Source of the DNA: Vermamoeba vermiformis
Lineage: Eukaryota
Direction: 5' to 3'
NCBI GenBank assembly: GCA_045837725.1
Contig: JBEWZL010000030.1
Coordinates: 1-64,000 of the forward strand
Length of the DNA: 64,000 nt
Each line of letters starts with the position of its first letter. The first letter of the stretch is position 1. The notes under the pieces were generated by a model. That model searched no databases. It was not told where the DNA came from and saw only the letters and a list, made by a program, of their open reading frames with translations. Of this stretch, positions 17-64,000 are shown one piece after another. Made by a program: the position numbers and the translations under genes.

Positions 17-530
17 AGCTGCGTGGCTCGCACCGTCCAAATTCCAGACGCTTTCTCAGCGTGGCTCGCACTATCCCCTCTGCCCTCAGTGCGCCACCAT
101 CCAGTTGTTGGATGGTTCCCTCTGTGCCATGCCTCAGCTCGACACCGTCCAGTTATTGGACGCTTGGCTGGCACCGTCCAAGACTTGGACGCTTTATCGG
201 ACTGTCCCCTCAATGTGTGGCTTGCACTGTCCGGTCTTGGACACTTGGCCAAACCGTCCAAATTCTGGACGCTTTTTTCAGCGTGGCTCGCACCGTTCCC
301 TCTGCTCTCAGTGCCACCGTCCAGTTATTGGACGGTTCCCTTGGTGCCATGCCTCAGCTCAGTGTGGCTCACACCGTCCAGAACCTGGACGCTTGGCTGG
401 TGCTGCATGGCTTGGTGAGTACATTGCACCATCCAAGACTTGGATGCTTTGTTGGTGGCTTGCACTGTCCAGGACCTGTGCAACTTCTTGGCTGGAGCTC
501 ACACTTAGTACTGCTAAGGTCCTGGACACG
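17..530. repeat. Palindromic repeat block A (GTCCA-N5-TGGAC hairpins in a ~220-bp higher-order repeat)
   Basis: About 10 copies, e.g. cgtccagttattggacg (146), cgtccaagacttggacg (175), cgtccaaattctggacg (255). Segment 52-140 recurs at ~276-360. Confidence 0.85.
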
Positions 531-588
531 TTTGCAATTGTAAAATAAAGTTTTGTTTTTAAAAATAGCTCCTTTATTGGGTTTGTGA

Positions 589-868
589 GGGTGTACAGCG
601 TGCCGTACGGGGGGTGCGAGGGGGTGTACAGCGTGCTGTACGGGGGTGCGAGGGGGTGTACAGCGTGCCGTACGGGGGTGTACAGCGTGCTGTACGGGGG
701 TGTACACTGAAGTGTATGGGTGTGAAGGGGCATACACCAAAGTGTACACTAGTGTGAAGGGTGTACAGCATGCTGTATGGGGGTGTACACCAAAGTGTAT
801 GGGTGCGAGGGGGTGTACAGCGTGCCGTACGGGGGTGCGAGGGGGCGTACAGCGTGCTGTATGGGGGG
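589..868. repeat. Tandem minisatellite B (~22-32 bp units, core GTACAGCGTGCTGTAC near-palindrome)
   Basis: Repeated gggggtgtacagcgtg(c/t)... units such as ggggtgtacagcgtgctgtacgggggtgcga; the degenerate middle copies show CG>TG/CA changes. Confidence 0.9.
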
Positions 869-5808: not shown

Positions 5809-10664
<4,856 letters not shown>

Positions 10665-38214: not shown

Positions 38215-39918
38215 TTAAAAATTGAGCAAACAAGCAAGGCCAACTGCAAGTACGGTGTAGCCAAGGCGAGAAGCACTCGATTTAGAGGTACTGGACGGCG
38301 CTTTAGTACCGCTTGGAGCAGCTACTGGTGCAGAGATTGGAGAGCTACTGGAGAGACTGACACAGCGGTGCAGGTAAAACCATCCCCTTCGTAACCCTGA
38401 TTGCAGGTGCAGGTTGGACTCACTTGTCCGACGTTCTCTGAGCAGGTAGCGTGTTCGGAGCACGGATTGTATGTTTGGGAGCACTGTGGGAAGTCCATCA
38501 CGTACACACCACCGCTTTTGTCTGCAATGACCCAAAGACTGCCCGGTGCAAATGTGCGAGTGTAAGCTAGTGTAGCCAGGAGTAGTCGCAGCATCGGGTT
38601 GGTACAACACATTCGCCACTGCAGACTTTGTGAGAGTATCGTTGTAGTACGCCCATTCCTGCGATGTAATGTTGTACAGCCACAGGAAGGGGACACCATC
38701 TTGATATGAGTACGAGATCCACAGCGCCAAGATGTTGTTGCCTGCGTACGTCATTGAGCTGTATGCGCCGCAGTCTGGTCGATGCTCTGCTGAGAAGACA
38801 CCAGGAGGCAGAGTGCTCACAGTCGCGGTGCAGCCACTGGTGAGACTCGAGACGTTCTTGTTGCCACTAATGTACTGCCAGCCAGATGAGCGGTTAAACA
38901 TCCACAAGTCATCTACGGTTTCACCTCCGTAGAGCCTAATCAATGAGTGTTACTACTTGGTATTCGAATGGACTGATCGTCAACTTTACCAGAGATTGTA
39001 ATTCGGGTCCACGGCTGTAAGTGGAGCCCAACGTTGAAATGGCGTCACTTCAAACGCATCCGCGAAGGTCGGGTCGCCAGTTACTATCGGCTCTAATAGT
39101 CCTGCTACAAAGGCCCACATCTTTGAGGTAACGTTGTAGCGCCACAGATCGGGATATAGTGGCCCCCCAATATTGTCGTCGTAACTACTAAACAGCCAAA
39201 GCGAGTTATCATCAGGCGTGTACCAATAACCAGAGCCTCGTTTACATCCGGGATAGTTCGCTGAGTTCTCAACGCCTTTTTCGACGGAATTCAACGAGCC
39301 ATCTCCAACGGTTAGCTCCGTCCAAGTCTGGGAGCCAGGCGAGAACTTCCAAAAGTCGCAGTTGTTTAATCCTCCGTAGATGTAGACGTTATCGTCTTTG
39401 TCGATCCACATCACATTGTCGGCGCGTACTGCGGGTCCTGCAGAGTCAAGTGCAGTCCAAGCGAGAGTCCAATTTCGAGCGGTACGATCAAAGTAGCGCA
39501 AAAACGCTGGTATTCCTTTACAACCTAATTTTGACTTCGTCAGGCGAGATCAAAAAAGTTTTGCCGATAAAATTATTGGCAACAAGTTATTATTCATATG
39601 GTAGTAAAATTATTCTACGAAACTGTTGCATTAAATTGTCCAAGCTAATTTACGGTTTAACTTTATTAAATTTGCAAATATTTGGAGCACCGCTCCGCCG
39701 AAGCTTAATTAAATAAACCTAATTGACGGCTTACCTCTTCCGGTAAATTGCCAAGGTCTTCCTTGCGAATCAGTTGCCAGAGAAAGGAGATCATAACCAG
39801 ATGTGATTAAAGGGTCCGAACAGTCTCCAGCTTCATCAGCCGGAAAATAAGCCGTCCATTGCCCCGCTTGTGAGGCGGACAAAACAGCTAATAGCGCCAA
39901 TACAATGAGAGCTTTCAT
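38215..39918 (-). CDS. Secreted kelch-type beta-propeller + EGF-like domain + probable GPI signal (one +1 frameshift near 38570)
   Basis: Signal MKALIVLALLAVLSASQA; kelch-like VYIYGG..DFWKF, LWLF..DLWRYN, LYGG..DDLWMF; EGF CSEHATC...CTCNQGYEGDGFTC; Ser-rich spacer and hydrophobic C-terminus. Confidence 0.8.
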
Positions 39919-40484: not shown

Positions 40485-41716
40485 ATGGAGGACACACCTA
40501 CGACTGGCATTTTCGTCACGCTTGATCAAGTGCAACGAGTTTTTGATCCGATCTTACGGAAAAAAGTGATTGATCTGGCGGAACAAGGCATTAGTTATAA
40601 CAACAAAGTATATTTTATTAAATGTGATGACAGTACCGAGTTTGTTTTGCGCGTGGGAGGAAAGCATTGGAAGTATTACAAAACGGTAAGTATACTATCT
40701 TTGTGTTTATTAAGCTTAGTGCAATAGTACATTATTTAAATGTACGAGTAAGGAAAATTATAATTATAATTGATTCAGAAATAATTAAATTGCGCTGAAT
40801 AATTATGTGCATCTAATAATTCATTTTAAACAGGAATCTGAAGTAGCTACGCTTCAATTCGTGAAGAAAAATACAACAATACCTGTGCCAACAATTATCC
40901 ATTATAGTTCAAGCGCAGATCCGCTTGGTCATGAATACATTTTGATGGAGAAAATGACAGGCCAAAATTTGTCTACGAAATGGACGCAAGTAAACGAAGA
41001 ACAAAAGAAGCTAATACTTGATCAAATAGCACACATTACTAAAGCAGCTAATGGATCTGTCATTCCCGAGCATTGGAAGTTTGTATTTAGCTGCAGGTCG
41101 TCGTGACACTTTGGCGTGTCAAGTTGACACGTGTCATCCGGACTTTGTCATCGGGATGTCGTCCAGATTCAATCTCGGACCATTTCAATCGTTCACTGAA
41201 TTCATTCAAAGCACGACAGAAGACGCACTGCAGCGAGTTGAAAAAAATCCGACTTCGTACTGTCAATTAGCCACAATTGCACCCTCTGTGCGCGAGTACA
41301 TTTCAAACACCGTGAAATCTCCAGAAAAACGAGATTTGCTGAACAGCGCTCCAATCTCACTCGTGCATGGTGACTACGATTTGCGGAATTTCTTGGTCGA
41401 TGACAACGGAATAATTACATCGCTGTTGGACTGGGAATTTGCAGCGCCTTGTACGATGGAAGAGGAATGGACGGAGAGCTACCAGTTCTTGAAAGAAGAT
41501 GATTCAATTAAACAATATTTCACTGAAAAATTAAAGCAGATCGGCGGAATAGTGCCTTCAGAGATTTCAGGATTCACTGAACGAGCGCGATTGATTTCAT
41601 TACGAGAACGCGTGTGTCCTTGGTGGCTCACGAATTATCACCCGGATCAACGCGAACAAATTGACAAGGATGTCATTGAAGCAGTGAACGATGTACGCAA
41701 GTTAATGATGATGTAA
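40485..41716 (+). CDS. APH/choline-kinase-family phosphotransferase (one +1 frameshift at 41041-41044)
   Basis: SYNNKVY, FVLRV, EVATLQFVKKNTTIPVP, YILMEK, Brenner motif LVHGDYDLRNFLV, LLDWEFA. Confidence 0.88.
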
Positions 41717-44700: not shown

Positions 44701-47700
44701 AAGCGGGTTTTGCCTAGTCGAACATTAGTATATTTCATTTATATAGATGTTAAGGGACATACCGTATTCTTCGAGTTGTTCACGGAGCTCAGGCGGAATG
44801 TTTCGGAACAATTTGGGATGGTCACAAATAACGTCCGCGCACAAGTTGACCAAGTAGTCAGGATTGGTCTCGGACTCTGTCTCGAACAACGGCAATCTCT
44901 TGAGGATCTTGGCCTCCATGGCAATGCGTCTGTCGATGAGTTAGCGTTATTTACTTTTTTGGAAATGACTACGTACTCAATCGAGACGGAGGTGTTGAGA
45001 GTCTCCAGCAAGAAACTTCTATCTTGACTCGTCAAATTATCACAGTTCTCTGGCTTGACGCGTCTCAGGGCCAACAAAATGTCCTCTGGCTTGATGTTCA
45101 AACACATCTTTCTAGTCTCGTTTGTCGGAGGACAGATGTCAGTGTTCAAGAACAACGCTTGCAGCTTGGTCATAATGTCAAAGAGACGTGCTTTCGGGCC
45201 CTTGAATAACTCCATCTCTGAAGGCGGAATGAAGATGTACTCGGCTCTACCACGACTCACGAGCTTGTAGTCTTCAGTGGGGATAATTGGCCAGTCGACG
45301 GGCAATGACGACCATTTGCCCTTTGCAACACTCCAGAACTTGCGCAGCCAAGCCTCGGAGATATCTATCACACGTTAGTCATCGAAAATATCTTCGTCAT
45401 TAGTTTCGAACTTACCGTTGAAATCCCAATTAATTTCTTCTCGTCCGCGCCACTCTTTGGGAAGTATCAAATGGAAGTTCTCCATGAACTCGGTGACACC
45501 AAAGTTCACTACAGAAGCTGGCGACAGATCTGCTTTTCGTGAGAGCTTGAAGTCTCGCAGAACCTTGCTGACATCAATGTTGATCAACGTGCGCTTGAAC
45601 GCCGGCAAGTTTTCAATGAGCTCGATGATGGTGTTGATGTCAGTGTCAATCATATACTTCAATTGACCACCGAAAATAGTGATGGCGTTGTTGTGCAAGC
45701 AACACAAAGGCAGACCAACGAGACCTTGAATGATCGCGTGAGTCTCTTCTTCGTCCAATTGACTCGTGTCCCAGTTCTGTCTCTTTTTCGCCTTCTGCAG
45801 CTTGAGCTTTTGATTCTTGCTCGTCTGTCTCTTGAAATCCGTTTCGTCCTTGACAGCAGGCAGAACAGTTTCAGTCTTGGATGACTCGAGACAATAGTTC
45901 AATAGGACCAGCGCGCTGTCCTTAGAGTTGATGACAAACTCGTCGTAGGTCCAGTAAGTCTTTCCTGATTCAGCTGCCATCTTTTTCAAGAAGTTTCGAA
46001 GTTTCAACGGTGAGAGCTGTTGAATTTCATTCACCGAGTGGTACTTGAACTGTTGATAAATGACCTCGGGAGCATCAGCCAAGGGGAACTTGATTTGCTT
46101 GAGAATATCCACGAGCTTAGCTGTGTTCTTATGCAAGATCAATTCGTTCGGGAAGACCGACTCGAACGGAGCAATGAGCGTGTTGGCATCCATGAACGAG
46201 AACAAGCAGGCTTGTTTTGCGAGTATTTGGTAGAAGGATTGGATCATCGGGTGCCAGAACTGATCGATCGGAGTCGCTGTGGTGGACGGCCAGAAGTCAT
46301 AGTACTGATTCTTTTTCACTTCACCGCGAGCGATGCAGCCTTGCAGACCCTTGATAAAGTGGACGTAGGCACCGAGTACAGAGGTATCACGCAGCACCCG
46401 GTTCCATTCGGCCTCTTCTGTGGTGATAAGACCGTTCTTCTCCGGCGTCAAGTCAAAGTTGGAATGGATTTGGACGGGCAAGCCAGTAGCTATGTCCAAG
46501 GGCACATAGTAGAACAACTTGCCGTTAGACGTTTCCTTTTCCTCCTTTTCTTCCTTCTCTTGAGCTTTCTTCTTGTTACTGTACTCGCGCTGATCAAGCT
46601 CTTTGGTGTCTGAGGGTAACTTCGCTGCAACGATCGAGTAAGGCAAACGCAAGCCACTGATCTTGGTCTTGGATGTCAATATCTTGTTGACGTAGCTGAC
46701 GTCAAAGTACTGTGACATCAACCACCTTTCGTTGACTGATTCGCCTTCAGCTCTCTTAGTGACCTTCATGTTCACGATCTGAGTTTCTTTTTGCAATTCA
46801 AGCGGCACGTCGAGCTTTCGCTTGATGGGATTGACAGCAACGATCTTTTTGACAGCGCGCTTCTTTTTCTTAGGCCTCTTTTGCTTATCGCCAGGCTCGG
46901 GTTCGTTAGTGTTATTATTGTTGTTATTGGGATCTTCAACGGTGATCTCCTCTTCGTCGTTATCATCCAACGTGGTCAGCTGCGTGTCAATGTACGACGC
47001 GATGTCTTTTGGTTTGCCACGGAACTTCTCAAGTTCAGGAGTGAAATCTGCACGAGTGAATTAGTTTAGTTTTTAATTAGTTTAGGACTTACTCTCAATT
47101 TCAGCGATAAACCAAGGCTTTAGATTGTTCTCTTCGTTTTGGTAGGTCTCAATTTTCTTGACACGGTTTAAGAATGCCAAATGCGAGGTCGCTTGACCCA
47201 TAAAACGGCCAATCAACTTGCGCACCTTGTCTACTGAAACAATCGTGCCAGGAAGACGGGAGTCTTTGCCCTTCAAAACTTGCCGAAGAGGTACTCTGAA
47301 GAGCGTGCCAGGGAAGTATCCCTTTGACACATCGCAGCCCAAGAAGTTGAACGTTGCAAATTGGTCGGGGAAGAGTGACACAATGTTGGAGTTCAAGTTG
47401 AAGCGGACATACGGGTGATGGGCGTTTGATCCAGGAACGTGCGATGTGTAAGCATCACAGAAGACGGCGTCTAAAAGTCCGTTAGCATTATAAAAATTTA
47501 GATTGAAAAACTGCTTACAGTTGCCGCTGACGAAGCTGGGAAGGTCGGACAAATGGAACAAGGTGCTGAAACCAATGCCAAGTTTTCCAATTTTGGTAAT
47601 GTCTCCACGCTTGGCACTTCTGCCAGGAGTACAAATGTTTTCAAAGTCCTCGGGTCTGAATGTGGCGTTGTTGTAAATGTACAACGCAGGTCCCTGGTGC

Positions 47701-50700
47701 TCCTTCATCTTGGGACCGAACAACGAGTTGTCATTGTGCTGCGTGTCGTCGAGAATAACAACGAATTCACTGGCACCAGCATCGTCGGCATTTTGAATCA
47801 TCTCCGTCAATATTCTGGATTGAGAACGAGTGTGAAGGGCCTCAGAGATCTTGCCGAGTTTTTTGCTCACACTTGCATCGCCATCCTGGTCCTTGATTGG
47901 GTCAATCGCATTCGTGATTACCACATGACTGCAAGGTCTGATGCCGAGAGCCTTTGCAATTTGATTCGGAATGGACGGATGAATGATTTGGTGATTCTCG
48001 GGTGTCTTGGCTTCGAGTGACTTAACCCACGGCATGTCGTCGTAAACGAGCTTTGTAGGTGACACAAGATGTCCACTTTGACTGGGCAAGACCAAACCAT
48101 TCGGAATATCTTTGGCTGACTCGATACTTTCAGATAACAAGGTCACAACTGAAAGGCTGAGTTTGAGTTCGCGCTCGTTAAGTGGCGTCCTGTTGTTCGC
48201 TCTGGTGGCCAATAAGTCTTTCAAAATGCCAACCAAGTCTTCAGGTTCGACGTAATTCTTGAAGTCGAGAGTGCTGAATAGGTTGGGATATTTCTTCAAG
48301 TCTCTTGGGCACGAGAATATGAACGGAGACAAGTCGATGGACAATTCTCGAACAATTTGAGTCTTCTTCGCAAAATAAGGAGCGACCCAAATCCACTTGC
48401 AATCTTCATCAAGGAGCTCATCGAAGGCGTTCTTTGTGATCTGCCCAGTGCTGAGTGCGTTGTTCAAAAACTCGTTGACACGGTCGCTAATCGTTGAAAT
48501 GAACGATGAAAGTTTCGAACCACTCTCGCCTTCAATGTTGAAAGCAACAGCTGTGCTCGCTAATTTCTTGGTGTGACTCACAACGACTTCAACGTTCGGA
48601 GGGTTGACCCAGTCAAATGTCTTGATGAAGTAGGGGTTCTTCGGGTGATAGTCGAGGATGGCACGACTGCCGCAGCTGAGCAGGGCATCACGTTGCAAAC
48701 AAGTCACGTTCGGGGCAACAAGCTGAGGCTCTCCAACAAACCAGAAGGCTTGATTGAACGCAGAGAGCACGTCATTTGCTACCACATTGAGTGAGTTGGC
48801 CAGGTAGTGTGTTGGTGAAATGCTTGGCAACCATTCCGTCGCTGACAACTCCTTGGTGAACACATCAAAGTCCTCCGCTGATAATTCAGTTTCCAGCATG
48901 CTGAAGTTACGATCCAAGTAAGCGCACAAGCTCTTCGCTCGCAACAGTGCTGCTTGCTTGTCTTGTTTGTAGTATGAAGGCACTGACTTGATTCTGTCGA
49001 TGAAATCTTTCACGCCAAGCTGCTTCTTCAGGCCAAGCTTTCTTAAGCTCGCAAGCATGGCAGGATCTTTGTACGGTCCAGTAGGGAACACAGGTTCGAA
49101 CGTGAACATGTGATTCATGTCTGTTTCTTCGGGGTCAAACAAATAACGAGGCGGACAAAGTCTTCCGTTGCTGTCTGGAATAAATTCCAAGTTGCTGAAG
49201 AAATCCACAATGTCACCAGCAGTGTCTTCCTTGATAATGGCATTCAAGTCTTCGAGCACATAAATCATCACTTGGTCTCGGTGTTCTTGAGTAAATGTGC
49301 TCAGTTTCTCGGTCAAATAAGACTTGTAGAACTCTGGGCGCTTCAGCACTGATATTTCCAAGAACTCCAACAGGTATTTGTCGTGTGGCGAGTCACGCTT
49401 GAGCAAGTACTCCGAAGTGATGTCGTGCGGAATGTTTTCGGGTGGGCACGCGTACTGAGTCTTGTCAATAGCTGCAAATCGATGTTCTTTCGAGAAGGTC
49501 TCGAAGATTGGAAGTTGCTTGATGTTGTCTCGTTGAGCTGCAGAGTTGAGCACCTTGTTTTCAAACCACTCATACTTGGAGAAGAATCGCCTGAGATTGT
49601 GAAATGTTAATGTCAACTAGCGCAAAGGTTTAATGGACTTACTTGAGAGCAATCTTTTCATCGGCAGACAAGACCGCAAATAGCTCCGTAGGTGATTTGT
49701 TCGCGTTCTTGATGCACTGAGTCAACGCGTTCAAAACACCAGCTGCGTCACCAGCAGGGAAGATGTTGCTCAAGATTTTGTTATTGAGTGTGATTTCCGA
49801 TTCATCGACGACATAACAGTGAAGCTTGGCCAAGGCGGTGATGACGTCATTGGACAAACTTGAGTGCGATAGCAAGCACGGCGTGTTAGGGTGTAGCGAG
49901 CACAAGCGTTGACCCATGCACGGTACTAGAGGCCATTGTTCGAAATCAGTCTCGGGCTTGTCGTTGCCGTTCATCGTAAGGAATGTCAAGTACTGCCAGA
50001 AACGCTCGAGCCAATCTTTTGACACGACATTCTGATTCCACTCAACGAGATACGAGTTCTTCCACTCTTTTGGAAGCACGTGCTCGAACAATTGGCTGAC
50101 AGTCTTGGGATCCACAATAGTCACATTGACCACTTCTCGCAGCTCACTTGACTTGAGCTCGGCGTTGATAGTTGGCGACACGATGTTACTGTCAACGAAC
50201 ATTGACAAGTGATTCGGAAACAACGACATTTCTAAATCAGTTGCGAGGTAAATATGAGCCTTGTTCCTGCTCTCAAACTTCGAGAAACTTTTGTCTGCCA
50301 TTGGCACCAGGTTGATTCCCTACTTTTGTGTCAGCTTCAAACCAAATTAGTTAACTTTAAACTAACGTACCTGAAGGTCTTCGAAGTTTCTATCGGCCAA
50401 GCAGTATTCGAGAAGATGCACAACTAAACTTCGATTCTTTTGATACATGGCGGGCACGGTGGTCCAATTAGTCTTCAAGATTTTTCGAACCAATGAAGGA
50501 CTAACAAATTTCACGGTGTTGCCGAGAGCGTGACTGAATGCTTCGAACAAACCAGGAGTGACTTCTACTACGGGAATGTTCTCGTCAATCAGTGCTTGAA
50601 AGACGGTCTTGAATACTGCAGGCGGGACAGCAGTGCTATGCACATCTTCATTTCTATATACAAATACGGCCTCTGAAGCGGAAACCCATTGTCCGCCGTT

Positions 50701-53109
50701 TGATGGACTGTACAAAACCTGAAAACAAAAAATTCAGTACAAAAAAGTCGGATCCGTACTGGTCTTACCTTTGCTTGGTTCTTAATCAAATAGCTATACA
50801 CACTTTCAGACAAATCGTTCCAATAAGAGTTAGTGGACTTGATGTTCGGCCATTGCTCGTAGAATTGAATCAAATACTCGAGTTGATTGTTCTTCGCGAT
50901 AGAAATGGCGGTCTGTTCGATCAAAGCAGCGTAAGCAGATCCGACAACATCTTGTTTGAGTCTATTGTTCCAATCTACTTTCTTCTTGCCTTCGCCGCTC
51001 AAATCTTCACCGTGCCAGACATCTCTTCTGTTCAGTGAAAGTTCGAAGCAGCCGTTAACATGCACGGGCAATCCTGTCTCAGTCGGTAGCGGCAGAAAGC
51101 AGAAAACTCTTCCTTTGACTATTCAATCGTTAATTTAAATCTAATTATTAGTTGTTGGAATTGTACGAACCATTTTCTTTGGTGTAAATGGATTTGGTTG
51201 CGACACCACCCCACGGCACCAATCGCAGTCCTTGAGCTGCTTTGAACTCTTGCATGGCCATCTCGCTGGACTTGCCACCGCCAATCTGGTTACATAACAT
51301 CCATGATTCGTTGTTGACCTGTGTGCCGTCTTTGACTTCAACATCGAGCGGGATGACGTAACTCTTTTCTTTGCCGGCCATTGTTTCCAAGTAAGACAAG
51401 CCTTGCGAAACACTGTCGTACATGACCTTTCGATCAGTTCTAACGGTGTTAAGAGTGATTGGATTTTGTTTTTCAGCGTTCTTAATGACCACGCTGTAGT
51501 AGTGCTTTGGCTCAGCGTCGCCTTTGTCCCACGTGTAAAGTTCAACGGACTCGACAAACTTCAAAAACAAGAGCACTGTTGAGCCTTCTTTTTTGAACGA
51601 AGCAAACAGCTCTTCAACTTTTTCTTCGGTGTACGGCAACTTTGAAATTTGTGAAAAGGGACTGACTTCATCCGTGCGCAACGGAAATCGGAACTAACAA
51701 CAATGTTATTATACATGCCCTTACTCGTAAGATTATATTGATCTTACAATAGTGCCGTTGAAAAATGATTTCATGTCGCAGTTGAGCATTTTGTACGGCG
51801 CGACTTGGTCTTCAAAAATTGTTGTCACTTCAGGACACTCTAAGTAGTCCCATCTATTATCGTCGACAATTAGAATAGGCTATTATAATATATAGCTACT
51901 TTTGAAGCGTACCTTTTACCACATGATTGAGTTTCACCGGGTAAGTAACGTGCGTGCGGATCTAGCATCACGAGATGCTTACCGGATACAAAGCTGATAT
52001 AATGAATTAGTATTTAATGATCGTTTATATGGCGTATGGTATTAATTTACCTCGGCAAGTCGGTGATGTGATAAATTGAGTTGAAACCAATACCGAACCG
52101 ACCAGTCTTGCCCAACTCATTTTTCTTTCTGCTCGAGCCCAGTCTTCGAATACTTTCAAAATCTTTTTCTTCGAAAACACCCGAGTTGTACGCATACAAC
52201 GCTAGCAAACAGAAGTGTCAAACTTTGACAGCAAATTTAAGTTCGTTTGTAGAGCTTACCAGGGCCTTGGAATAACTTCATTCCATCTGTAAATAGTTTC
52301 TTTGACGGAAATGATCTCCGATCAAAGACGAATTTGACGTGTGTCGCGCGAGCATCATCGGCGTTTTGAAGCAACTCTTTGAGAATTTGACTGTGTGATT
52401 CAAGAGTTGGTTAGCACGTGCGAATAAGATGGAGTTGTTACGTAGTATCGTGAGTAGCGAAATAATATGAATAATTGCACGTGAAACACAAAGAACGGAT
52501 CGAGTTTTTTGAGAATTCCATAAAAGATAGAAAAATTTACCTTCCGTCCGGGTATTGGCGCAGAATATTGGTAATTCTAACGGTGAGGGGTTCAAATTGA
52601 CTGAATTCTTCGCCTTCAAGTAGCTTAAGACGGTTGGGAGCCAAACCTGAAGAAAAAAACGAAAAAAATTAATCAAAAATCTTACTGGCTTGAATACACC
52701 ATTAAACTCTTTTTAACATGAATACTTGTTTAAAATTACTGAGCGGCTATTTTTAGCATTTTTTCCAAGCTCAGAATAAAAATTCAATTTCACAAGTTGG
52801 CTTACCTTGACTTCCCAAACTCGTCATTGAGACGTTAATAATGTTATATATCGTTCCTGTCGCAGGATCAACGGTGAAAGGCAAATTGGTCACGTATCTA
52901 ACTTGGCCATCTACAGTGAAGGAGTATTTATACCGTCCAGGAGGCATAGACAACTCTGTTGACCATTTATCACCATTTTTTTGTAATTTAGTTGGCTTAA
53001 ACTCGTTCCAAGAGCCAGTAATCAAGACTTCTTGAATACTAGTCTTTGGTTGATCAGCATCTGGCTCCCAGGAGAACGAGACAGGCACCAAATGCAATTC
53101 CTGAGTCAT
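41789..53109 (-). CDS. Sacsin-like giant protein (two HSP90-like SRR modules) with N-terminal CBM48/AMPK-beta glycogen-binding domain (one +1 frameshift near 44528)
   Basis: [71 protein letters not shown]; second module EMIQNADDAGA, IGKLGIGF; exon 1 ITGSWNEF...PPGRYKYSFTVDG. Confidence 0.9.
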
Positions 53110-61158: not shown

Positions 61159-64000
61159 TTATTGCTCTTGGTTGGTATTGTTGGTGTTGACCAAGCTCGC
61201 TTGATACATCTTGACGGCCTCTTCTTTGGCCTTTCTGAAGGTCAACGAGACACGACGGCCACGTGGGATGTCAATGCCAGCAAAGGTGTCAATGCGACGG
61301 GCCTCAATGCCGTGTGACCACTGATACCGCGCCTCGCCTTGCAACACAACGGCGGATCTGGGCTCGAGAAAGACCGCTTCAGTCTTGGCTGTTTGATAGT
61401 GCTTGAAGTCCATCACGGCGCCGCTCTCGAGTGTGATGGAAATGACGCAGCCTTCAAAGCTGGCCTTGTGATCGATGTGCGGGCTGATGCCTTGACCCGG
61501 CGTGTACTCGTTGATGATCACTTGGTCTGCAACAAACGGGGCCAATTTGTCCGCGTGCAATCGTTCAGCGAGGAACGCGAGCCACTCTGGCAACTGTCCC
61601 AAGAACTTTAAGCGTGGCGCATCAATTTCTTGTTCCTCGCTGGATCGGGAATTAGTCAATTAAAGTGAGCTACGTCGAGTACTGTTGGTACTTACGGTGC
61701 GAAGTAATCGTATTCCCAGCCGTAATGTTGAGTTCTGCGGGCCAAACGCATGTCCCACTCCTGTGCGTCAACAACCTGCAAGATTTTCTTCTCTTCCAAA
61801 TGCGACAGCCATTCAGGCACGTAGCCGAGACCAGGCACTTTAATCTCGGACAAATTGTTCAAACTCGTCACGGGCTTGGGTCTGACAGCTGATTTCTTCA
61901 AGTTCTCGACAACAGGCGCCGCAGCGGCCTTGGCAGCTTGTTGCTTCTCGTTAGCAATGGCCGACATCTTGAAGATCTTGGCTGGCGTGACCAACGTGGG
62001 GAATTTCAAGTCGAAATTTCCGGTCAAGAACACGGAGTTCAAGAAGAAGACCAAGCTGTAAATGTCATCGGTGTCGTACAAGGGTCTCAAGTGCGCATCA
62101 ATCTCCCTGATCAAAGTGATCATCTCGTCAGCCAGGGCGTTGCGCTTGAGGTGATAAGGACTGCCCCAGAACTTGTCGCTGGCCTTGGTCTGTTGCGTCA
62201 ACATCAGCATTTGCTTGTGCAATGTATTGACACGCTTCTGCAGCTCTTTTGACTTGTCATCTGTCATAGCAATACGTTCAATAGTCTAAGGGGACAATGT
62301 TAGTGGAAGTGTCAACGAGGCACGTGTTCATCGTGTCAATGACTTACGGCTTTCTTGTAGGCCTGGACTTGCTCCAATGCACGAATGTGAGGGAACAACA
62401 AAACTTCGAACTTGCGCAATGCTGCAACAAGTTTTTGAAGTCTGACTTCGCTGGTCTGATCGTTGTACCATTCAAAGTACAGCGTGTTCGTGGCCAAGAA
62501 TTGACGTGTCAAGTCCAAGAAGGGCTTGAGCTCGGCTTTGGCAGGGAAGTCGGCCTTATCAACCTCGTCCATGTTTTGTTTCAAGGACGCAATCCACTTT
62601 TGTTCGTCAGGCGAGCTGGTGAAAATGAACTTGGGCAAGTGCTTCGTGAACAAATCGTTGCCAGGCGCAATCTGAATAAGATTGAACAGCGCTTGAGTGA
62701 CTGTCTCGTTGTTTTTGGTCAACTCGTGAATGGTGTTCGTCAAACAAGTCTCCCAGTGGTAGTACTTAGGGTCCACGAAGAAATCAAACGCCGTGCCCAA
62801 GTTAAGCGTCGAGGCTATGACCGACTCCATAGGGTTCAACAGCACACCTATCGCATGTTAGCATGATATTAGGGTGTAATATAAATGTGATTAAGTACCA
62901 TCAACATAGGCACCAATGTGCTCGTCACGACCCATGTAAGGGTTCAAGAATTGAATGTGCGTGCGATAATCGTTCACGGGTGTGTTGTCCCAAATCACGA
63001 GACGACGTTGAGGACCGAAAAATCCTCGTGTTCTCTTCAACAGATCCAAGCTGATCGTCTTGCTGATGGTTGTTTCGCCGGTCCACAAGAACACGACACG
63101 CGGATCCATCTTTGAAACACCGTCAGAATTACTTAGTAACGAATATAATAGGTTATCTTACCTTCTCTTTGAACTCAGTCAAATAGTTCACAGCAGGCAC
63201 TTCAGCGTTGTTTTTGAACTTGCACGAGTAATAAGTAGGGCACGTGGTCCATTCAATAGACTTCAATTCAGCCTTCTCAGTCAAGGTCTTGTTGGCAATG
63301 AATGCGTCGAAGTACTTGATGAGCTTGTTCATTGTGAAGGCTTGGGCGTCCACGAGACTAGAGAAGTCTTCCGGCAAGTCGAGTCCAATGTCATCGAACA
63401 GAATTGTGATGTGATTGCAGCCAATCTCTTCGTAGACCTGATGAAGCTTGCTAACCATGCACGACATTAGAAACAACCCTTATTGAATTCGTATTACAAC
63501 AAGGTTAACTTACGCGCAGAGTGCATCAAAATCTTTCACGTCACCGTGTTTAATGCCCCACGGATGAATGGCCATGTTGAAAGCAATGTTTTGTTGCTTA
63601 GAATAGGCGACTAAATCCTTAAACTCTGTTCGAATAGATTAGTACTACTGCCGCATAACATTCGATAATTAGACGGTACCTTTCACGAGTTCCTTCGGGA
63701 ACAAGTCACGCCACTTGACGCGATGATAAGGGTCCTCTTTCGGTGCCCAAATATAGTAATTGGCTTTCTTCTTGCTCATCCACGCGATCAGCCTCTTGCG
63801 GTTGGTCATGGTGTAAGGCTGACCGTAGTACCCTTCGACCACACCGACAGTTCTGACGGGATAAGTCTTTGACAAGTCAGTAGTGTCATTCCTAAAATGG
63901 ACAATTAGAGCACGGTCACGTGATGGTCGTTGATCGATCAATGAGTGACACTTACTTTGCGATTTGATCGAAGTCTATGAACTGGCTCAATTGTTCGCCA
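61159..64000 (-). CDS. O-GlcNAcase-like GH84 glycosidase fused to a C-terminal AlkB-family 2OG-Fe(II) dioxygenase (5' end lies outside the window)
   Basis: GH84: GVVEGYYGQP, YIWAPKEDPYHR, ILFDDI, CPTYY, LWTG, IWDNTPVNDY, LLNPM. AlkB: RRTQHYGWEYDY, DQVIINEYTPGQGISPHID, EARYQWSHGI, RRVSLTFR. Joined in phase 0 across intron 62287-62347. Confidence 0.85.

Follow-up and report, generated by a model that had tools for sequence, protein, structure and literature searches.

A spliced GH84-AlkB gene of Vermamoeba vermiformis and its zinc-finger-bearing relatives in Tubulinea amoebae

The DNA analysed here, called the window throughout, is the stretch of 64,000 nucleotides from positions 1 to 64,000 of contig JBEWZL010000030.1 of the amoeba Vermamoeba vermiformis (assembly GCA_045837725.1). 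At its right-hand end, on the minus strand (64000-61159), lies a gene that joins an O-GlcNAcase-type domain of glycoside hydrolase family 84 (GH84) to a dioxygenase domain of the AlkB superfamily. Eight exons, A to H, and seven introns give a single frame of 812 codons, which is open at the window edge, contains no internal stop and ends on a TAA codon. All seven introns run from GT to AG, measure 51-64 nt, start with donors resembling GTAAGT and contain a branch site of the CTAAC, CTAAT or CTGAC kind. A preliminary description made from the letters alone had read a GH84 domain, a helical stalk and an AlkB domain from one spliced frame with canonical junctions and no frameshift. The order of the Pfam matches along the open frame bears this reading out, and the domain search that it had proposed for NAGidase together with 2OG-FeII_Oxy_2 finds both.

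The junction in dispute is the sixth intron, which separates the GH84 half from the AlkB half of the gene. Our RNA evidence consists of four runs aligned to the window. Two of them, X21 and X23, consist of raw RNA-seq reads of a relative that is 90-95% identical; the library type of a third, X1, could only be guessed, and its contigs are taken to be transcript-derived because six introns are missing from them. An X1 contig of 1635 nt covers 62845-62348, 62285-61696 and 61639-61153; it lacks precisely introns 6 and 7 and differs in 34 letters over 1575 aligned bases. The splice from KKA to TIERIAMTDD that the preliminary description had drawn is present. Introns 1, 2, 4 and 5 are removed in other X1 contigs, and the one that carries the intron 1 joint (63890/63955) extends beyond the window by about 348 nt. 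Nine reads in X21 (8 starts) and eight in X23 (7 starts) cross the intron 6 joint, which in both runs is placed at 62285>62351 and shows three letter substitutions; 6 and 12 reads, respectively, cross that of intron 7. Both joints of exon C are present in RNA (63625/63680 and 63450/63514), a contig of the metatranscriptome run X12 is spliced at intron 4, and at least one spliced RNA record exists for every one of the seven introns. One further joint in X23, 62221>62351 (6 reads, a skip of 129 nt with AT..GC ends), is probably a misalignment of the divergent relative and not an alternative splice.

Comparison with a relative gives the same result. The metagenome contig L001 aligns to 63318-61185 of the window, and its exons E, F and G, which are 79-88% identical to ours, are of exactly the same lengths (211, 500 and 590 nt). 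The introns that can be compared, four in number, measure 52/75, 51/52, 62/51 and 56/66 nt (window/L001) and are 46-53% identical, with GT and AG kept. For intron 6 the identity is 52.9%, against 79-83% in the flanking exons, and its 62 nt in the window are not a multiple of three while the relative has 51, so that in both genes the flanking exons share a frame only once the intron is spliced out. Over 485 codons the ratio of nonsynonymous to synonymous substitution (dN/dS, Nei-Gojobori) is 0.033 for GH84, 0.042 for the stalk, 0.097 for the linker and 0.030 for the N-terminal part of AlkB, at a dS of about 1-1.8. In a distant homologue from Rhizamoeba the alignment runs unbroken across the exon F/G junction (QIYKK-TISNL against QAYKKATIERI in the window). 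The 51-nt intron of L001 (996-1046) happens to be open in frame, and a prokaryotic gene caller therefore produced from this contig a 399-aa open reading frame, P0001, that is translated through the intron. P0001 was the single protein match in a word search with exon G, and it serves as a warning that metagenome "proteins" may include translated introns.

The competing model is one of two adjacent genes, a GH84 gene that stops at 62338-62336 and a separate AlkB gene that starts from the ATG at 62267. Such a model could draw on the fact that retention of intron 6 would end the GH84 frame after KKAVSH at that very stop, on the position of the ATG only 18 nt into exon G, and on the greater RNA depth over the 3′ half. 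The joint is, however, crossed by a spliced contig and by reads; the space between stop and ATG would be just about 68 nt; the 18 nt before the ATG are kept as coding sequence (TIERIA in one gene, VIERVV in the other) right up to the AG; the intron in the relative is 51 nt long and diverged; and relatives known from transcriptomes are unbroken across the junction. Separate transcripts ending at 62336 and starting at 62267, which the preliminary description had set beforehand as the picture opposed to its own, are contradicted by the spliced RNA. We find the two-gene model scarcely credible. RNA, comparative, selection and distant-homologue evidence agree that intron 6 is a true intron within one gene, and that this gene makes one protein is to us very nearly certain. 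The interval 64000-61159 is thereby shown to be the 3′ 2.8 kb of a single spliceosomal gene that encodes, in this order, GH84, stalk, linker and an ALKBH8-like AlkB domain under strong purifying selection (Table 1).

Table 1. Parts of the GH84-AlkB gene at the right-hand end of the window
Feature	Position	Strand	Content
Exon A	64000-63956	-	partial, 5′ open; about 15 residues before the GH84 domain, without a start codon
Exon B	63891-63680	-	start of GH84 barrel; motifs VEGYYG and APKEDPYHR
Exon C	63625-63514	-	GH84 barrel segment, placed by the gene model and RNA joints
Exon D	63450-63162	-	GH84 segment; catalytic Asp-Asp codons 63395-63390 (LFDDIG) and CPTYYS
Exon E	63109-62899	-	GH84 segment; IWDNTPVNDY
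Exon F	62847-62348	-	end of GH84 barrel (LLNPME) and first stalk helices; last residues QAYKKA
Intron 6	62347-62286	-	62 nt, GTAAGT...CTAAC...TTAG; disputed junction
Exon G	62285-61696	-	three more predicted stalk helices, low-complexity linker, AlkB N-terminal strands
Intron 7	61695-61640	-	56 nt, inside the AlkB domain
Exon H	61639-61159	-	AlkB double-stranded beta-helix core
Exon H motifs	HxD 61479-61471; second His 61314-61312; RVSLTFR 61254-61234	-	stop codon 61161-61159

The GH84 domain is recognised over the whole length of its catalytic (beta/alpha)8 fold, and the adjacent Asp-Asp pair is present. NAGidase (PF07555) matches exons B, D, E and F collinearly, at profile positions 2-55, 93-160, 169-239 and 238-292 of 295; the E-values are 2.8e-21 for exon B, which is the best, 5e-5 for D and 1.6e-12 for E, and exons B (76.6 bits) and E (47.8 bits) each exceed the 25-bit cut-off on their own. 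Exon C scanned alone against Pfam gave no match. Among solved structures, exon B matches the Clostridium perfringens enzyme CpGH84/NagJ best (E 5e-14), followed by human OGA (about 4e-11), and the best match of exon E is human OGA 5uhk (E 1.6e-6), with viwdn..ndy aligned. Exon F is homologous to residues ~490-642 of P0003, a relative from Arcella to which we return below. Exon D is assigned to GH84 by its Pfam match and its collinearity with the other exons: its FDDI pairs with the FFDDI of the solved OGA 9qep, yet as a stand-alone match this is weak (E 0.89) and is outranked, when exon D alone is searched against the Protein Data Bank (PDB), by chance-level matches to an unrelated oocyte protein. 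Through P0003, the Asp-Asp column of the window also ties to catalytic positions that were mutated in solved enzymes (5diy D120N and 2wzh D242N). The window gene thus has the full canonical GH84 motif set, VEGYYG, APKEDPYHR, FDDI, CPTYYS, IWDN..NDY and LLNP. Judged from these motifs, the GH84 domain of the window probably hydrolyses beta-O-GlcNAc still.

For the AlkB domain, 2OG-FeII_Oxy_2 (PF13532) matches exon H over profile positions 70-194 of 194 with E 1.5e-19 and 71.5 bits, compared with a cut-off of 31.2. The E-values for the two domains are thus much too low to be due to chance. The N-terminal third of the domain lies in exon G, where the strands KVPGLGY...RRTQHYGWEYDY align to relatives whose PF13532 matches cover positions 1-194. 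The Fe(II) triad and the RxxxxxR motif that binds 2-oxoglutarate (2OG) are present as PHIDH, WSHGI and RVSLTFR, and with LFDDI in exon D all of the catalytic motifs listed in the preliminary description are accounted for, so that by sequence both active sites appear intact. That description had also placed the domain nearest to ALKBH8, and among solved structures human ALKBH8 is indeed its top match (3thp, E 4.1e-20), in which the HxD and H columns pair with those of the window; ALKBH6 (4.4e-12), ALKBH7 and Schizosaccharomyces pombe P8A3.02c come after it. The AlkB domain of P0003 ranks the PDB in the same way, with 3thp first at 5.3e-21. A weak match of the linker to DUF4665 (E 0.015, under the cut-off) was disregarded.

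The region between the two domains is best described from an AlphaFold2 model of P0003 (mean pLDDT 75.9), in which a GH84 barrel (236-540) is followed by seven helices (561-720), a disordered segment (723-763, pLDDT below 50) and a confidently predicted AlkB domain (770-962). Solved GH84 enzymes align to the model from residue 232 through 631-738 with Z scores of 27-30. The exon F/G junction of the window maps to P0003 642/643, which by the model would fall in the fourth of the seven helices (634-645). From the same model, the window helices in exon G, which include the conserved DDIYSLVFFLNSVF, are inferred to continue the stalk, and they are followed by a linker that begins AAKAAAAP. A search of the ESM Atlas with P0003 gave no usable match.

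A phmmer search with P0001 against 1.84 billion representatives returned 301 matches at E<=1e-3, the best 150 of which were listed, and 20 of the listed proteins were scanned against Pfam. In six of these 20, NAGidase and 2OG-FeII_Oxy_2 occur together. Two of the six are truncated at the N-terminus; the other four are full-length (962-1227 aa), and every one of them begins with zf-C2HC5 (PF06221) and TRIP4_3rd (PF23134). The fusion relatives come from Trinity transcriptomes of Arcella intermedia, Flabellula baltica, Rhizamoeba saxonica and Echinamoeba exundans, all four of which are Tubulinea, and from Logan contigs. Their identity to the window protein is 22-37% over GH84, 15-26% over the stalk and linker, and 44-51% over AlkB. 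By its domain order this is a small eukaryotic family, found elsewhere in Tubulinea amoebae, whose members consist of a dual zinc finger of the TRIP4/Rqt4 type with the third domain of TRIP4, then GH84, stalk and AlkB. A metagenome protein of 479 aa, P0016, has zf-C2HC5, TRIP4_3rd and AlkB without GH84; it represents the family in its simplest form, with the AlkB domain that comes nearest to that of the window (49% identity). A quick tree was built from 87 AlkB domains, after 65 of the 152 candidate rows had been set aside for lack of a near-complete domain. In it the window, all family rows and three short fragments form a group of 12 rows with an SH-aLRT of 94.

The two catalytic domains have had different fates in this family. 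None of the four relatives that cover the Asp-Asp site (P0003, P0005, P0008 and P0015, from Tubulinea and Logan data; L001 ends short of this column) keeps the pair, which reads NE (Arcella), DA (Rhizamoeba), AD or SG instead, and their other GH84 motifs decay in step with it and in a graded manner. The HxD, H and R..R residues of AlkB, on the other hand, are kept in 7/7 family rows. The loss of the former and the retention of the latter point to AlkB as the conserved catalyst of the family. The GH84 domains of the four relatives look like a series of pseudo-glycosidases, and their persistence suggests that the amoeba relatives retain this domain for a role other than hydrolysis.

Several other proteins from the searches have a more limited relationship to the window gene. 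A profile search with the family alignment returned P0003, P0016 and one bacterial GH84, other candidates being crowded out. About 27 longer proteins of the phmmer list (450-987 aa) were rejected as members, as AlkB is all that they have in common with the family profile. Among proteins of 723-776 aa, P0011, P0019, P0021, P0071, P0107 and about 20 more have a C-terminal AlkB domain that matches the family profile at roughly 1e-53 to 1e-65, and some lie on megabase-scale contigs; their N-terminal ~540 residues gave no Pfam match and no similarity to GH84 or the stalk. The same search also brought up P0072 and P0284, from ENA contigs, in which AlkB is attached to an ADP-ribosylglycohydrolase (PF03747, E 3.8e-38); this is a second example of AlkB combined with an eraser of the sugar type.

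The preliminary description had expected further N-terminal domains beyond the window, and this is probably correct, given the finger and TRIP4_3rd in all four full-length relatives and the transcript that continues past the edge. Residues 23-74 of P0003 match residues 172-223 of human TRIP4 in 8alz (E 1.2e-14) and yeast RQT4 in 7zpq (1.4e-4), and in all four relatives the spacing of the zinc ligands is that given for human TRIP4 in PMC10076317. On this footing we consider it probable that the window gene, too, carries an N-terminal TRIP4-type finger, encoded beyond 64000. What such a finger might do is suggested by the same paper, according to which the finger of human TRIP4 suffices on its own for stable docking to the C-terminal cassette of ASCC3, a helicase, TRIP4 sets its ASCH domain at the nucleic-acid exit of ASCC3, and TRIP4 and ALKBH3 bind ASCC3 in a mutually exclusive manner (PMC10076317).

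These observations suggest the following explanation for the protein. The missing N-terminus would carry a zinc finger of the TRIP4/Rqt4 type that docks the protein onto an ASCC3-type helicase, the motor of ribosome-collision rescue, to which ALKBH3 also binds for alkylation repair. Placed there, the protein would serve as an AlkB oxygenase docked on the helicase, and its substrate would be the RNA or DNA that the helicase handles, or a bound factor. The AlkB domain would be the conserved engine of the family, and the GH84-stalk module an auxiliary scaffold or binding module that in the lineage of the window is probably still hydrolytic; together, GH84 and AlkB would occupy the position that the lasso and ASCH regions have in TRIP4. 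We put the probability of this explanation as a whole, that is, one spliced GH84-AlkB gene with an inferred finger, a helicase-docked AlkB and an auxiliary GH84, at roughly 0.55. The docking mechanism taken by itself is a proposal that we hold to be somewhat less likely than not. The family looks like a fusion of two human partners of ASCC3, TRIP4 and ALKBH3. It is rather unlikely, although worth stating, that the docking finger brings both the AlkB domain and a still-active O-GlcNAcase onto the collided-ribosome helicase, which also unwinds alkylated nucleic acid.

A number of points weigh against the helicase-docked explanation. The window ends before any zinc finger, and its presence is extrapolated from relatives that are 22-37% (GH84) and 44-51% (AlkB) identical. 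The AlkB domain resembles ALKBH8 in sequence rather than ALKBH3; among the 30 PDB sequences that it matched at E<=0.01 there is no ALKBH2 or ALKBH3 chain, so the domain is not simply an equivalent of ALKBH3 and could act on tRNA or on protein. The explanation does not account for the placement of GH84 between the finger and AlkB. The Asp-Asp pair is lost in the relatives but kept in the window at a dN/dS of 0.033, and the role of GH84 may therefore differ by lineage. With regard to the RNA, the depth in X21 and X23 is about 20-60 over the AlkB exons compared with about 2-20 over the GH84 exons, a gap that could result from 3′ bias, from the filter at 90% likeness or from an extra internal transcript; the likeness threshold leaves out unspliced reads of the divergent relative, which places intron retention outside the RNA comparison.

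The alternative favoured in the preliminary description was a coupled two-step eraser, in which GH84 strips O-GlcNAc and AlkB oxidises or demethylates the same substrate, or else an O-GlcNAcase that is gated by oxygen and 2OG. This possibility is in keeping with the intact motif sets of the window and with the equally strong purifying selection on its two domains (dN/dS 0.033 for GH84 and 0.030 for the N-terminal part of AlkB), and the fusion of the same AlkB clade to an ADP-ribosylglycohydrolase in P0072 hints at a recurrent theme of erasers joined to AlkB. Obligatory coupling is nevertheless disfavoured by the family. The Asp-Asp pair is replaced in all four relatives that cover it while the AlkB residues are kept in all seven rows, and P0016 has no GH84 at all, so the function conserved across the family cannot be sequential action; the modelled linker between the domains is, moreover, predicted to be disordered. 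The context of the family, which a reading of the letters alone could not show, points to a helicase link through TRIP4 and ASCC3. We give the eraser idea a small chance. The same degenerate sites raise the opposite possibility that GH84 in the window, too, is only a scaffold or a reader that binds GlcNAc, with AlkB as the sole catalyst. Relatives that have lost the site still keep domain and stalk, so that a non-hydrolytic role exists in the family; however, every canonical motif is kept in the window and aligns to solved active enzymes, at a dN/dS of 0.033, and the chance that its GH84 has no catalytic function seems slim.

ALKBH8 hydroxylates mcm5U in tRNA, and a third possibility is that the protein is likewise a hydroxylase of the wobble uridine, in which GH84 and the N-terminal parts replace the RRM of ALKBH8 for targeting or regulation. 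ALKBH8 is, after all, the best solved match, well ahead of ALKBH6, both for the window and for P0003. On the other hand, a Pfam scan of the window protein and its relatives found no RRM, no Trm9-type methyltransferase and no C-terminal zinc finger of the ALKBH8 type, and the AlkB domains of the family form the separate 12-row group described above. We regard an ALKBH8-like activity on tRNA as improbable. The helicase-docked AlkB oxygenase with an auxiliary GH84 module is, with the reservations listed, the explanation that we prefer.

None of the closest known systems has the same arrangement. Like the window gene, metazoan OGA is a eukaryotic, intron-containing gene with a GH84 barrel that contains Asp-Asp and WDN..NDY and is followed by a helical stalk, and the model of P0003 aligns to human OGA chains (59..695) with a Z of about 27. 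It differs in that its C-terminal domain is a pseudo-acetyltransferase (pseudo-HAT, or pHAT; PMC12494797), while ours is an AlkB dioxygenase; no acetyltransferase match was found by Pfam in any window exon or scanned relative. In addition, the long disordered insert that splits the stalk of metazoan OGA is absent from the window protein, for which an N-terminal TRIP4-type finger is probable. The bacterial GH84 enzymes (Thermobaculum terrenum OGA 5diy, C. perfringens NagJ and Bacteroides thetaiotaomicron BT_4395) are the best structure and sequence matches of the GH84 and helical bundle of the family; for 5diy and P0003, the sequence E-value is 1.5e-27, the Foldseek value 4.3e-18 and Z 30.1 over 397 residues. 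The window gene, in contrast, has no appendages of the CBM, FIVAR or cohesin type and is spliced, eukaryotic and fused to AlkB.

ALKBH8 (RRM, AlkB and Trm9-like methyltransferase) has the closest solved AlkB domain, with HxD and H columns aligned, but its RRM, methyltransferase and zinc finger are missing from the window exons and from the six fusion relatives. The window gene is, by its domains, a member of the AlkB superfamily and not an ALKBH8 orthologue. TRIP4/ASC-1 (yeast Rqt4) is alike in the dual zinc finger and third domain that the relatives possess, and the ASCC3 complexes are alike in that human ASCC3 takes either TRIP4, through its finger, or the AlkB enzyme ALKBH3 (PMC10076317). 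In the relatives, however, finger and AlkB are part of one polypeptide and the AlkB domain is ALKBH8-like; there is no ASCH match in the window exons or the relatives, and GH84 and AlkB are found at that place. Without a pseudo-HAT the window gene is not a metazoan-type OGA, and without ASCH it is not a TRIP4 orthologue, as far as domain composition tells. A full-text search of the literature, with supplements and subscription journals outside its scope, found no description of proteins that combine GH84 with AlkB or a TRIP4 finger with AlkB. An earlier mention is possible; we consider the architecture to be new and its component families to be known.

The window has a GC content of about 38-49% and contains other genes as well. 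Two large open frames on the minus strand (47085-49616 and 51151-51693) have Sacsin domains (PF25794, E 1.3e-52 and 1.3e-13). Exons of an ABCC-type transporter (ABC_tran and ABC_membrane) lie at 6078-10132, also on the minus strand, and a metagenome protein, P0159, that is 92% identical to this transporter is probably from the same relative as L001. For one exon of the transporter, the best named matches by identity are mostly amoebozoan (Vermamoeba 64% and 62%, Arcella 62%, Echinamoeba 62%, Pyxidicula 61%, Nematostelium 62%) and include one rhizarian at 63%, which by itself speaks weakly for an origin in Amoebozoa. A Kelch-repeat open frame is found at 38989-39549 on the minus strand, and a weak match to an APH-type phosphotransferase at 41030-41713 on the plus strand.

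O-GlcNAc cycling has been seen as a speciality of animals. A 2021 review (PMC8724618) describes a single OGA as key for removal in animals, evidence for OGA as lacking in plants and OGT-like genes as widespread in protists. Here a protist gene has a canonical GH84 site, is expressed and constrained, and is joined to AlkB. The series of sites in its family, DD, NE, DA, AD and SG, is a natural one from an apparently active to a pseudo-GH84 enzyme and should be useful for studying what the OGA fold and its stalk do apart from catalysis. The family also appears to recapitulate independently, as a gene fusion, the relation of human ASCC3 to TRIP4 and to ALKBH3, which would offer a testable handle on why an AlkB enzyme is recruited to that helicase. 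If a still-active O-GlcNAcase and an AlkB oxygenase are indeed brought together onto the collided-ribosome helicase, then the removal of sugar from proteins of stalled complexes and the oxidative repair or modification of RNA or DNA would take place on one machine, and the enzyme of V. vermiformis would be the first O-GlcNAc hydrolase of a protist for which a place of action in the cell is defined.

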